A stretch of DNA of 64,000 nt, taken from assembly GCA_964016885.1 (NCBI GenBank), contig OZ024743.1:52886001-52950000 (forward strand). Reading direction: 5' to 3'. The position numbers and the translations under genes are program-made. The notes under the pieces are model-generated. The model saw only the letters and a list, made by a program, of their open reading frames with translations, did not search any database and was not told the origin of the DNA. Of this stretch, positions 2,577 through 59,451 are shown piece by piece; within the stretch, counting starts at the first letter, position 1; every line of letters begins with the position of its first letter. Source of the DNA: Eledone cirrhosa. Its lineage: Eukaryota.

Positions 2577-2612
2577 TCTTAACGTTTCCGACGTTAATCC
2601 TTCATCAGAAGA
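2577..2612 (-). ncRNA. Minimal type I hammerhead ribozyme motif (candidate)
   Basis: Reverse complement: ucuu CUGAUGA aggauuaacgucg GAAA cg UU aaga. Stem I ucuu/aaga, palindromic stem III ACGU, weak stem II. Confidence 0.55.
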
Positions 2613-3107
2613 AAGAATGAGAAATAAGACAGATTGTGGGGACGGGCGGGATGGAATTGGAAAAAAAAATCTTTAGATAAAATAACAGGTCCATTCATGT
2701 TGACATTTATATATATATATCACCATTATATTTAGCCATTATATTTGCATTATATATGCATCCTAGCAACCATACGACATATATATACATACATACATAC
2801 ATACATACATATATATATATATATATATATATATATATATATATATATATATATATATATATATATATATAAGTATAAAATCATAGAAATATTCAAAAAA
2901 ATTTCTTAAAAATAAAACAAATTCAAAATGGTTCTTGAAATTCTGCAATATTCTTCTAGAAATTCTGAAATAAAGTTTCAGAAATATCAAAAATATTTTT
3001 ATATTAAGATATGTTTCTGGAACGACTAAAATATAGTTCTAAAAATACTAATGAATGGATTTTAGAAAATACGAATAAAAAATCGAAAACAAATGCAAGG
3101 AACTCAC

Positions 3108-3257
3108 CATACATAGTTTGGATAACAGCAATATCAAATTTGGACAGAGTACAGTCACCTTTCATCCATGGCCACATGATGGACAGAGGCCAACGGGAGT
3201 GCATCAGTCCGAGACTGTGGCCAAATTCATGAACGGCCACACAGTACAATTCAGCAT
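3108..3257 (-). CDS. MMP exon with the zinc-binding motif and Met-turn
   Basis: cttcatcag|AT...TATG|gtgagt; 150 nt, phase 1 to 1. Encodes NAELYCVAVHEFGHSLGLMHSRWPLSIMWPWMKGDCTLSKFDIAVIQTMYG (HExxHxxGxxHS, SIMxP, D...IQxxYG typical of matrixins). Confidence 0.95.
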
Positions 3258-4063
3258 CTGATGAAGAGAAGGGAAAAAAAGAATTAATTGAAGTAGAGAT
3301 CTCGCCCACCTATCCCCGAGAGCGCCGTGAGGGAAGAGTCCTCAAACACTCCTTCCAGTGGATCCTGTCATATATGAAAAGTCCGTTAGTGGGTTAGATT
3401 GCCCTAGTAATTTATTATTCTCAGTAATAAATTAAGGTAACTTTCAGTCACTCTAATTTTCTTTTATTTTGCTTTCTCCGACTTATTACCTTGGTAACCT
3501 AACCCACTTGTATTGCACAGCTTTCTAGACAGACTCTTTAATTTCATACTCCACAGTGCTTCAAGCAAACTATCACACCTTTTTATATAGGAGATGACGA
3601 AGGACCGTGACAAGTGGAGAGATGTTGTGCTGAATAGAACCCGTCCCACCCTTGCAAGCAGGGAAAAGCGGACGTAAGATGATGATGATGATGATTTGTG
3701 TGTGTGTGTGTGTGTGTGTGTGTGTGTGATCGTGCGCGCGTGTGTGTGTGTACAATGGATGCATTTTTCTCCCATAAATAATTGTTTCTATTTTTGGCAC
3801 AAGGCCAGCAATTATTCCAGTGTATTACTGGTACTTGATTTTATCGACCCCGTAAACCGCATTATTTCTCCCATCATGCGGTTTTATGGCAACCCCCATA
3901 ACAACAACAACATCAACAACAGCAACAACAACAACAACAACAACAACAACAACAACAACAACAACAACAACAACAACAACAACAACAACAACAACAACAA
4001 CAACAACAACAACAACAATAACAATGATAATAATAATAATAATAATATAGTCCAACAACTCAC

Positions 4064-4289
4064 TTCTGTTGATGAAATTTCTGGAACCCCAATCTTCGTC
4101 AGCATCGAAGTGGGCATCACCAGAGAGACCCGGAGAGTTGTCGTAAGGGAAGAACGCATGCGCCAAAATACCCCCACTTCCGTCAAATGGACTGCCGTCA
4201 CCATGTTTGCCAGTGAGGAAATTGACTTCAATGTCAACTGGACCACGTCTCTTGCGAGTGAATGTCAACTGAGTGACACGTTCCCAGGC
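4064..4289 (-). CDS. MMP catalytic-domain exon (structural Zn/Ca-binding segment)
   Basis: ctctaacccag|GCC...AGAA|gtgagt; 226 nt, phase 0 to 1. AWERVTQLTFTRKRRGPVDIEVNFLTGKHGDGSPFDGSGGILAHAFFPYDNSPGLSGDAHFDADEDW matches the MMP HGDxxPFDGxGGxLAHAFxP...GDAHFDxDExW consensus. Confidence 0.95.
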
Positions 4290-4404
4290 CTGGGTTAGAG
4301 TGGAGTGTGGAGAGAAATATAGAGTTATAGTTACAACTTCATGATAACAACAACAGTAACAACAACTACAACAGCAGTAACAACAACAGCAACAACAACA
4401 ACCC

Positions 4405-5230
4405 TGGTTTCTGATTTAGGTAGAAATCCAGCAATTTTCCATGGAGAGGAAAGTCGATTATATCGACCCCAATGCATTACTGGTACTTTATTCTATCATT
4501 CCCAGAAAGAAGAAAGGCAAAGTCGACCTCGGAGGGATTTGAACTCAGAACGTAAAGGGCTGAAATAAATATTCAGTGCATGTTGAAATATGCTCTAAAG
4601 ATTCTACCGACCCACCATAGCAGCAGCAGCAGCAGCAATAATAATAATTGTTTCTACTTCGATGCTGACGAAGATTGGGGTTCCAGAAATTTCATCAACA
4701 GAAGTGAGTTGTTGGACTATATTATTATTATTATCATTGTTATTATCCCAGTGTATTACTGGTACTTTATTTTATCGACCCCGTAAGGATGAAAGGCAAA
4801 GTAAATTTCGCCGGGGTTTGAACTGCAGCAGCAATAATAATAATTGCTTCTACTTTTGGCACAAGGCCAGCAATTAGCCAGTACATTACTGGTACTTTAT
4901 TTTATCGACCCCCGTAAGGATGAAAGGCAAAGTTGACCTCGGCGGGATTTGAACTCAGAATGGAAAGAGCCGTAATTCTATGGGTCAAAGCATGGCGTCC
5001 GACCCTCTACCGATACTGCCAATCCACCAATGGTTTCTCATATAGGCACAAGGCCAATAATTTTGGCGGAGGGGAAAGACGATTAATTCGACCCCAGAGC
5101 GTTACTGGTACTTTATATTATCGACCTCGTAAGGATGAAAGACTAAGATTATCTCAGTGGGATTTGAACTCACCGCAAAGGGACGTAAGTCTATGCCACA
5201 AAACATGTCCGACGCTCTATCGTAATATCG
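4405..5230 (-). mobile_element. Cluster of about four SINE family 1 copies
   Basis: Repeated actggtactttattttatcgacccc...gggatttgaactcag. Confidence 0.85.
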
Positions 5231-56599: not shown

Positions 56600-56848
56600 A
56601 TTAATCCGTATGTTGAGCAAATGGGGGCTCACGTGGTGGCCTCCCCACAGCCCCGGCGGACAGGATGGAGAAGGCGTTTCCCCAGAGGATGGTAAGAGAG
56701 ATGCGCTGGAAGAGCCATTCCAACTCGCGAGGCTCACACCTGCGGCTGGCCAGCTCAGCGCCTATGGTGGTGAATAGGGAGGTAGCCTTAGGGCCAAGGA
56801 CACCAGAAGTCTCCACTGCCAAGGGCACGACCACGATCCTGTCGGTTC
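56600..56848 (-). mobile_element. Second CRE-like 3' fragment
   Basis: VVPLAVETSGVLGPKA...LFQRISLTILWGNAFSIL; paralogous to 55665-55935. Confidence 0.7.
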
Positions 56849-57247
56849 TCTTAACAACTTAAATGCAATTGTCCTTTGTGATTTTGTAAAGCTTAGTACT
56901 GAGTTACCCTATATATTTGTATATAAGGCGATCCAAACATAAGCTGACCCCAGCCCTACTTTATAACTAAGAAATGGGCTAAATTTCAACCGCCCTTTAT
57001 AAACTAAGGCAGCTAATCAACACATGTTTACATGGTGAATATAAGCTGACACATTTTACCATCGATTTTTGGTGATATATTCCTTGGCTTATATTCCAAT
57101 ATACACGGCAGTTCGTTACATAATCCCTCCTACAGTAATTACTGGTATAAACCTTATGTTACAGTTCAGGTTTGTAAACTTTTTTTTTATATATTAACTC
57201 ACCACAAATCTTGTCTTTATTTTACATCTTTAACATCGGTTGACTGA

Positions 57248-57748
57248 TGTGGTGGTGTTGTGGTGGTTATGGTGGTGTTGTGGTTATGGTGGTGTTGTGG
57301 TGTTGTCGTGGTGTTGTGGTGTTGTCGTGGTGTTGTGGTGTTGGAGTGGTGTTGTGGTGTTGTGGTGTTGTGGTGGTGTAGTGGTGGTGGTGGTGTTGGA
57401 GTTATGGTGGTGTAGTGGTGGTGTTGGAGTTATGTTGGTGTTGGGGTGGTGTTGTGGTTATGGTGGTGTTGGGGTTATGGTGGTGTTGTGGTGTTGTGGT
57501 GGTGTTGTGGAGTTGTTGTGGTGTCGTGGTGTTGTTGTGGTGGTGTAGTGGTGGTGTTGGAGTTATGGTGGTGTAGTGGTGGTGTTGGAGTTATGGTGAT
57601 GGTGATGGTGATGTTGGTGGAGATGTTGACGGTATTAGTGAGGCTGGTAATACTGTGATGTTGATGTTGATGTTGATGGTGTTGATGATGATGTTGGTGA
57701 TATAGATGGTGATGATGATGGTAATGTTAATGGTGATGATGATGGTGT
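57248..57748. repeat. GT-rich low-complexity tract ((GTGGT)n, (GAT)n)
   Basis: Direct reading. Confidence 0.85.
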
Positions 57749-58449
57749 TCCAGTGTACAAAAGGTGAGCTCCACATTAGGTATGTATCCATAATTACCTG
57801 TCACATCTGTCAGCTGTGATGTGATTGGTCACTTTAAACTTACTCCTCTTCCTCGCCCCCATTCTTTTCTTTCTTTATTTTTACCTTTCCATCATCCCCC
57901 ACCATCACCCACAGCCAACCCCCATTCCCTTTCTTAATTGAATCTCTGACAAAAAAATATTATTTTTGCCATAGTTTTTCTGGAGAATTTTTTCCTACCA
58001 TCCTTAACAAATAATTGTTTCTACTTTTGGCACAAGGCCAGCAAATACCCCAGTGCATTACTGGTACTTTATTTTATCGACCCCATAAGGATGAAAGGCA
58101 AAGTTGACCTCGGCGGGATTTGAACTCATAACTATTAATAATGTAACCATTACATTTATTATGCAATAAAACAATTATGTAAAGCTAACTCTGTTTTAAC
58201 GCTATTTTGTATATATCATCATCATTACCGTTTTACGTCCGTTCTTCCACGCTAGCATGGGTTATACAGGTTGTCTTGTTATGGGCAATGCCCAGTCGGC
58301 TGACCTTGTCTTGCACATACGAGAATTGATTCTGGCTTGATTTCTACAGCTGGATGCCCTTCCTAACACCAACCTCATTCACAGTGAGTGCTGAGTGCTT
58401 TTTTTCCGTGGCACCTATATATATATATATATATATATATACACACAAA

Positions 58450-58752
58450 ATCGGCGGGATTTGAACTTAGATCACAATGGGCCATAACTCTATGCTGCAA
58501 AGCATAGTGTCTGACGCTCTACCGATACTGCCAAATAATGGTTTCAGATTTAGGCACAAGGCCAGCAATTTTGGGGGAGGGGAAAGTCAATTAAATCGAT
58601 CCAGTGCATTACTGGTACTTTATTTTAAAAACCCTATAAGGATAAAAGGCTAAGTTGACCTTGGCGGGATTTGACCTGAGTACGTAAAGGGCCGTAACTC
58701 TATGCTTCAAAGTATTGTGTCTGACGCTCTACTAATACTGCCAATCCCCCAC
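58450..58752 (-). mobile_element. Two SINE family 1 copies
   Basis: Same consensus. Confidence 0.85.
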
Positions 58753-59396
58753 CTTAACAAATAATGGGGTGTGTGGGCGAGGGGCGATATATTGGATACT
58801 GTATTCCTAGAATACACTGTGTCTGAAAACAGAAAGACAAAGATGGTCATGGCTGGAAAGCCAATGATCATAGGTCTGCTTGTTAACTCATAACATCCTT
58901 GTAATGATTTAGCAGGAAAATGTCTAGAAGCAGGCTTGTTAATTCAAATGTTTGTAGTATTTTTACTAGTGGAACGAAAGTTACCAAAAATTGCAGCTTT
59001 AGAGTAAAGACATTTAATGTCTTTAATGTGATGCAGTGTTTGGTTGTTTTCAGAGAATGTCTAGCTAATGTGACTTCATGTGGAACAGAATGTGATGCAG
59101 TGTTCATTATTCACCTAATGAGATCAGTGATAATCGATCATGACCACACGATCGATCTATCCCTTATTGAAACATGTGTCGTGATTAAAATGATTGGAAA
59201 TGTATACCATGCCTTCGGATCTTTATTTTGATACAAATATCCGTTTTACATCATCTAGCTGTTCCCATGAATGGAATTGGAGATATACAAAAGCGTGGAG
59301 AACTTAACAACCCAACCAGGAACTGGGCATATCAGAGTATTGACAAAATTATACACCTCAACAACATATGTACTTGTCTATACCACACTAATTCGG

Positions 59397-59451
59397 ACTG
59401 ACTGAAGAGGTCACAGCCAAAGATGGCTGTCACTGAAATATATATAGCAGT
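59397..59451 (+). ncRNA. Type I hammerhead ribozyme motif
   Basis: acuga CUGAAGA ggucacagccaaagauggcugucacu GAAA uauaua UA gcagu; near-identical, together with about 150 nt downstream, to the 25758-25985 element. Confidence 0.7.

Follow-up and report, generated by a model that had tools for sequence, protein, structure and literature searches.

The 64,000-nucleotide stretch of the Eledone cirrhosa genome analyzed here in full (assembly GCA_964016885.1, contig OZ024743.1, positions 52,886,001 to 52,950,000; hereafter, the window) contains hammerhead ribozyme motifs that are very probably the terminal-repeat hammerheads of at least six protein-coding families of Penelope-like elements (PLEs), whose copies here are truncated, frequently inverted, and probably templated by uncut RNA. 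A preliminary description of the window had listed 11 such motifs, all of which are present at the places and on the strands it gave, and had typed them as minimal type I hammerheads with a palindromic stem III from several families, a typing that our analysis upheld. Its tally of about 11 dispersed motifs is right for the motifs but not for the insertions, which number only nine, as the motifs at 26047 and 26202, like those at 37586 and 37791, are arms of single inverted insertions.

Six of these motifs are intact, two are core mutated, two have a broken stem pair, and one carries U4C. The full core is kept in 8 of the 11; the other three show G8A (22218, minus strand), GAAC in place of GAAA (26210, plus strand), and a CCGAUGA core (27969, minus strand), this last being the U4C change, which is common to most relatives and is reported to reduce hammerhead activity without abolishing it (PMC3088659). 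At 59402 (plus strand), the first stem I pair is broken at a position where 12 of 14 other copies retain a C, and at 2608 (minus strand), the first stem II pair (10.1-11.1), which relatives retain, is broken. A strict descriptor requiring a stem I of at least 4 bp, CUGANGA, GAAA, a paired stem III, and UH, with stem II left free (a version requiring a paired first stem II base loses genuine motifs), matched the window six times, with C3 at 23533 and 37799 on the plus strand and at 25806, 26099, 27217, and 37643 on the minus strand. The preliminary description had supposed that dinucleotide-shuffled sequence would not yield a similar count, and the means were indeed 0.07, 0.03, and 0.01 for 500-bp, 2-kb, and whole-window blocks, respectively (100 shuffles each). 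A looser descriptor that permits U4C and a 2-nt stem III gave seven window matches versus 0.08 in shuffles.

Penelope-like elements as carriers of the hammerheads

Searches of the genome, which scored 40 candidates of 903 to 4,322 for each DNA query and 150 of 64,293 for the protein query, found dispersed copies of all queried families (A, N, C, B, D, and E). In longer copies of these six families, reading frames for a reverse transcriptase (RT) and then a C-terminal GIY-YIG endonuclease lie upstream of the hammerhead (loci L105 and L106 for family A, L109 and L116 for B, L107 and L108 for C, L110 and L111 for D, and L112 and L113 for E). For family N, the linkage is visible in the window itself, and 15 of 19 relatives show an open reading frame (ORF) match that extends across the hammerhead. 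Three window copies run on into ORF or long untranslated region (UTR) sequence, and the nearest Atlas clusters bear RVT_1/HTH_animal. The family N element in the window is 92.7% like L115, a full-length copy whose direct repeats are separated by 4,053 nt; because the tail of its upstream repeat continues into the ORF, the full-length RNA is expected to have the hammerhead and tail at both ends. These pseudo-long terminal repeats (pseudo-LTRs) are direct in L115 and inverted in L105, L110, and L111.

RT pieces from five families align at 38 to 43%, with Q-D-I and F-D-x-x-M-G invariant. The endonucleases, read in families C, D, and N and partly in broken copies of B and A, have a CxCx5C linker, CxxC, and CxH, with no CCHH; DKT is found in family C (L107) and RWR and DKS in family N (L115). 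The described marks of the Hydra clade are RT plus GIY-YIG, RW[KR], DK[TS], the CxCx5C linker, and CxxC and CxH (PMC8557442), and families A, B, C, D, and N would be placed in this clade by their motifs alone. Family E (L112 and L113), with a DKG motif, a CX2-5CxxC linker, and CCHH-like residues, appears Neptune-like by the same kind of evidence, with Nematis as another candidate. Neptune or Naiad had been our first guess for the main elements and was dropped on domain order and linker motifs.

PLEs, one of the carriers named in the preliminary description, are thus borne out by the RT and GIY-YIG reading frames, whereas the retrozymes that it also named found no counterpart among the window motifs, none of which lies within a tandem array. 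Its proposal of a large and probably unannotated mobile RNA system stands insofar as the system is large, mobile, and made up of several families, but the system is of a known kind, namely, the pseudo-LTRs of ordinary RT plus GIY-YIG PLEs. The window copies are fossils of new PLE families that bear hammerheads.

Copy ends, the tail hairpin, and the source RNA

Two sets of 3' ends, counted from the predicted cut site, recur across families. For family D, we used the first 90 of 1,433 exact tail matches; 85 of the 90 tail-bearing arms stop at about +135 into microsatellite, and an adjacent inverted arm has its outer end at +44 to +55 in 40 of the 90 loci and at +40 to +43 in 6 more. In samples of 30 loci each, some of which are two arms of one insertion, family A ends at +54 to +57 (14/30) or +145 to +165 (16/30) and family C at +36 to +38 (12/30) or about +102 (17/30), and the window copies of N and B display the same two-end arrangement. 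Since both 3' ends lie beyond the cut site, the templates spanned it and would mostly have been uncut.

The 5' ends also cluster. In family D, 41 of 130 arm ends fall at -130 to -121, in all sub-haplotypes seen, and ends at -107 to -117 in family A (7/30, three probably duplicates) and at -36 to -39 in family C (5/30) are comparable; family D arm ends found by BLAST at -146 to -177 are partly breaks at a poly-C tract. We infer from the DNA that this pileup reflects the transcription start, and PLE transcription is reported to begin in the pseudo-LTR (PMC8557442). Cut templates were considered as the source of the D copies and rejected, as no pileup of 5' ends at the cut site was seen: only 6 of 53 ends between -110 and +39 lie at 0 to +9, which is not an enrichment (p = 0.14). 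Isolated copies ending at +1 do occur (L174 and the duplicated L248/L249).

A tail hairpin begins 0 to 8 nt 3' of the first copy end in families A, A', C, D, and N and consists of RCTC, an inner stem, a 1- to 2-nt bulge, GAGY, and usually RCT. Family B has the same hairpin letters with an alternative fold, and family E is without the hairpin. MAFFT misaligns these hairpins, and counts were made by a script anchored on the fixed letters across all collected loci. At least three inner pairs with a 2-nt bulge were present in 71 of 146 distinct tail strings, a set biased to the query families, versus a shuffled mean of 7.3, and bulges of 0, 1, and 3 nt gave 13, 9, and 3 strings, respectively. Inner stems include CAG/CUG, UAC/GUA, GUC/GAC, UGU/ACA, and CGU/ACG, and the outer pair is A-U in some and G-C in others; single hairpins fold modestly (z of -0.8 to -3.1). 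Among published elements in the supplement to PMC8557442, the form can be seen by eye in Hydra-2_Amil, Hydra-1_Ajap, and Hydra-2_Ajap and imperfectly in Hydra-1_Crog and is not clear in Hydra-1_Amil or Hydra-1_Obim. We found no prior description of it, the main text of PMC8557442 containing neither "hairpin" nor "stem-loop"; Repbase and older papers were outside the scope of this search.

The tail hairpin likely marks the start of reverse transcription. The element's protein may bind the hairpin and nick both strands of a (TA)n target, whereupon reverse transcription would be primed both immediately 5' of the hairpin and 60 to 120 nt beyond that point, yielding two opposite cDNAs that would then join. 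Priming on the repeat at the 5' end of the RNA would run off at the transcription start and produce many copies of 80 to 260 bp. An anole PLE has been reported to use two RT start sites bounding the tail, with extension on both strands, an uncut RNA substrate, and protein-dependent cleavage (PMC11167929). We lean slightly toward a broader proposal, in which Hydra-clade PLEs of corals, sea cucumbers, and this genome share an undescribed cis-acting hairpin (RCTC, variable 3- to 5-bp stem, 2-nt bulge, GAGY, RCT) that would act as the RT binding and twin-priming signal, and in which priming on the 5' copy would mass-produce hammerhead mini-elements at one of the densest loads known (about 50 to 90 per Mb).

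Several observations weigh against this account of carriers and copying. The clade calls rest on motifs and not on a tree, ORF linkage leaves out A' and the family of the motif at 62596, the ORFs seen are all broken or partial, none being intact over its full length, and Pfam found GIY-YIG in the family ORFs only at or below the cutoff and gave no match for RT. A cap-derived extra G, expected at the proposed transcription start, was sought and not seen: a G stands at the D 5' pileup in 9 of 45 short junctions but is mostly accounted for by the other arm. The pileup site is, moreover, a CATATG palindrome that could favor joining. Both arms of the window family A insertion end at the first site, and 44 of the 90 D loci have no inverted arm ending there beside the tail arm. 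Finally, the short copies of family C form a separate haplotype (6/8 versus 0/13, p = 5e-4), which points to a noncoding source copy.

It is possible, though we think it doubtful, that short copies in general come from such noncoding sources, either retrozyme-like RNAs or solo terminal repeats, which would be transcribed independently and mobilized in trans by PLE protein. Besides the variant in the short arms of family C that is absent from its long arms, this idea draws on families D, A, and C having fixed 5' ends, on the presence at another genomic locus (L118) of a true tandem retrozyme with 310-nt units, and on a report of retrozymes as PLE derivatives (bioRxiv 10.64898/2026.07.22.740005). 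However, the haplotypes of family D occur in both its short and its long arms and differ only in frequency, and the window has no motif in a tandem array and three copies contiguous with ORF or long UTR. A noncoding source supplements the PLE origin and does not replace it.

Stem pairing and ribozyme activity

The stems of different families were said in the preliminary description to differ in sequence while keeping their pairing, and compensatory changes across 23 motifs of different families agree with this. In the covariation check, 91.3% of the cells were paired versus 30 to 54% in slid controls, and two-sided changes were seen in 14 of 16 stem pairs, including AU to GC in stem III. The covariation score was 0.62, compared with 0.27 for shuffled and 0.09 to 0.19 for slid alignments, for hand-picked, mutually related descriptor matches in which stem I pairing is partly built in and 2 of 23 rows are misaligned; the result is best read as support and not as a probability. 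Stem II, being free in the descriptor, allows a noncircular test: of 37 representatives, 28 have a stem II whose fold ranks in the top 10% relative to shuffles. Full self-complementarity of stem III is seen in 32 of these 37, 20 of them having no G-U pair.

Hammerhead monomers of this type are not expected to cut, and dimers would require two copies on the same strand, as on the full source RNA. The inverted insertions fold into hairpins that are 85 to 99% paired; because one transcript holds both a motif and its antisense, such pairs cannot form dimers in cis, and the paired hairpins would hide the motif. The ribozyme likely works solely in dimeric form, slowly or with the help of protein, on source RNA bearing two repeats, and the window copies are likely inert fossils.

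That the genomic copies are instead working ribozymes, cutting host or intron RNA and pairing via common AUAUAUAU stems, appears improbable. Six motifs are intact, three of them on the minus strand (25806, 26099, and 37643) have one identical stem III palindrome, and matrix metalloprotease exons near the 2608 motif share its strand. However, the AU palindrome forms a weak duplex (-3.2 kcal/mol), the long hairpin of inverted copies buries the motif, 4 of the 11 window motifs are decayed, and poor in vitro cutting has been reported for metazoan PLE hammerheads (PMC4209133). Chance matches in AT-rich, microsatellite-rich DNA have a negligible probability: AT repeats make up 7 of the 11 stem III palindromes, 5 of 7 motifs tested singly have weak folding z-scores, and the Rfam hammerhead models, which the preliminary description had proposed for searching, gave no match at the gathering score or among the matches listed (150 of 225 by E-value), but a chance origin is refuted by shuffle controls far below the observed counts, by 71,610 genome matches versus none for the reversed pattern, and by compensatory stem changes, AU to GC in stem III among them.

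The window, genome-wide abundance, and known systems

The first of the nine insertions is a family E copy, the 3' end of a Neptune-like PLE (2488 to 2706, minus strand; -126 to +93 from the predicted cut site), with its hammerhead at 2577 to 2612 and ACGU as stem III. Two matrix metalloprotease exons (Pfam Peptidase_M10; 3004 to 3309 and 3825 to 4415, minus strand) follow on the same strand as this hammerhead, which possibly lies within an intron of that gene. A truncated family A-like copy (22125 to 22253, minus strand) has a hammerhead at 22166 to 22226 that is predicted to be dead (G8A). The short family D copy (23443 to 23722, plus strand) spans -123 to +135 plus a 21-nt inverted stub and carries an intact hammerhead (23525 to 23595; predicted cut after 23587) with the strongest stem III duplex, as well as a tail hairpin at 23640 to 23667. 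In the two-arm family B insertion (25705 to 25982), the minus arm holds an intact hammerhead (25758 to 25810) and the plus arm begins within stem II, with a tail at 25896 to 25938. The family A inverted insertion in (TA)n (26000 to 26310) has an intact hammerhead on the minus strand (26047 to 26107) and the mutated GAAC copy on the plus strand (26202 to 26262).

A 5'-truncated family C copy of about 730 bp (27150 to 27877, minus strand; -705 to +38) retains a broken GIY-YIG piece, 3' UTR, and an intact hammerhead (27183 to 27222). Its start coincides exactly with the family N element's 3' end, and this junction (27877/27878) shows that PLE ends serve as targets for other PLEs. The 5'-truncated family N PLE (3.3 kb; 27878 to 31180, minus strand) comprises frameshifted RT and GIY-YIG (29306 to 31055), a 1.3-kb 3' UTR, and the U4C hammerhead (27928 to 27972), and the inverted tail of this insertion lies at 31177 to 31330 (plus strand; tail hairpin, 31191 to 31224). 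The family A' inverted insertion (37537 to 37994) has 182-nt arms that are 100% complementary, intact hammerheads at 37586 to 37651 (minus strand) and 37791 to 37856 (plus strand), and a tail on the plus arm alone (hairpin, 37911 to 37932). The short family B copy (59305 to 59594, plus strand) carries the hammerhead with the broken stem I pair at 59397 to 59451 and a tail at 59508 to 59550. A twelfth, hammerhead-like motif, absent from the preliminary description, lies at 62558 to 62600 (minus strand) and belongs to another repeat family, one that ends in (TA)n; the stem III of this motif is incompletely palindromic.

Tail hairpins without an adjoining hammerhead, flanked by (TA)n, occur at 40373 (plus strand) and at 45028, 31693, and about 31452 (minus strand) and are relics of other PLE families; the type at 31380 to 31780 is very common. 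Two broken LINE-type elements with endonuclease and RT (48769 to 52489, plus strand; 60043 to 62166, minus strand) are presumably RTE-like by their motifs. The window is rich in microsatellites and has large minisatellites at 7314 to 17622, 5870 to 6988, and 18626 to 21511, made up, respectively, of a 25-bp unit repeated 413 times, a 39-bp unit with an internal inversion, and a 53-bp unit repeated 54 times. Weak partial tRNA matches (18455 to 18512, 26720 to 26777, and 40693 to 40748) are probably heads of short interspersed elements (SINEs), and a tRNA-like SINE of about 190 bp has more than 10 window copies (e.g., 39136 to 39670). This SINE is also inserted in family D at +44 in 5 of the 90 loci (L163, L170, L177, L224, and L240), independently, because the target duplications differ.

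A tight pattern for the A/A'/D group has 71,610 exact matches in the 3.0-Gb genome. Forty evenly spaced 10-kb stretches gave 36 descriptor matches versus a shuffle mean of 0.5, which extrapolates to 2.7 × 10^5 genome-wide; since the same stretches held 16 tight-pattern matches versus 9.6 expected, about 1.6 × 10^5 motifs is the safer figure. The window density (7 per 64 kb, looser descriptor) is typical of the genome. In 1.23 Mb of collected genomic loci, 342 descriptor matches fell into 33 clusters, many unrelated to the window families, with a stem III of 2 to 8 nt. The tandem retrozyme at L118:3650-4620 (G000:C1:65,003,650) consists of four 310-nt units, all containing a type I hammerhead with ACGCGU as stem III, and the same motif occurs nine times among the collected loci. 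PLE-type hammerheads elsewhere are reported at about 2,000 to 9,000 per genome (PMC4209133), hammerheads in one coral at more than 6,000, and retrozyme motifs in axolotl at 126,247 (PMC7229834); the count here is high and not unprecedented.

How PLE tails and inverted arms form, and the role of the hammerhead, become testable in this genome beyond the single published in vitro system, as its many families have left young copies, in the tens of thousands, that preserve a record of two priming sites, a common hairpin, and uncut templates. The genome likewise supplies a large natural collection of hammerhead variants that escape the Rfam models.

PLEs have been described with fixed 3' ends, truncated 5' ends, inverted arms, tails, and (TA)n targets, and hammerheads in Hydra-clade PLEs, including one octopus family (Hydra-1_Obim, in the supplement), are already published (PMC8557442), this paper being the sole relevant result of our literature search on hammerheads in octopus or cephalopods. 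Our elements have in common with that clade the (TA)n targets, 3' hammerhead, inverted 5'-truncated copy, and optional tail, together with RT and then GIY-YIG, RW[KR], DK[TS], the CxCx5C linker, and CxxC and CxH around the endonuclease end. In contrast, the window hammerhead sequences differ by eye from all in its File S2, the elements are at least 4 kb with 1.1- to 1.4-kb 3' UTRs in four families (published elements are mostly <3 kb), tails are 60 to 120 nt, and copy numbers are far above the "small number of families" described there. The metazoan PLE minimal hammerheads of PMC4209133 are likewise type I with a palindromic helix III, in many families per genome, mostly as solo truncated copies with some opposite-strand pairs 100 to 700 bp apart, but here most retain a 6-nt helix III insert and motifs number at least 71,610 compared with about 2,000 to 9,000. 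The Anolis Poseidon element PAc in vitro (PMC11167929) resembles our families in starting reverse transcription at two sites on either side of the tail, in its AT-rich target, and in copying uncut RNA, whereas it belongs to another clade, and our evidence comes from genomic sequence only, places the hammerhead in the UTR, and defines a specific, covarying hairpin. Non-LTR retrozymes (PMC7229834) also carry type I hammerheads in short dispersed repeats, with a comparable total, but are tandem and noncoding, unlike the nontandem window copies traced to coding PLEs. The arrangement of hammerheads in PLE ends is therefore known; what this genome adds is their abundance, the tail hairpin, and the map of copy ends.

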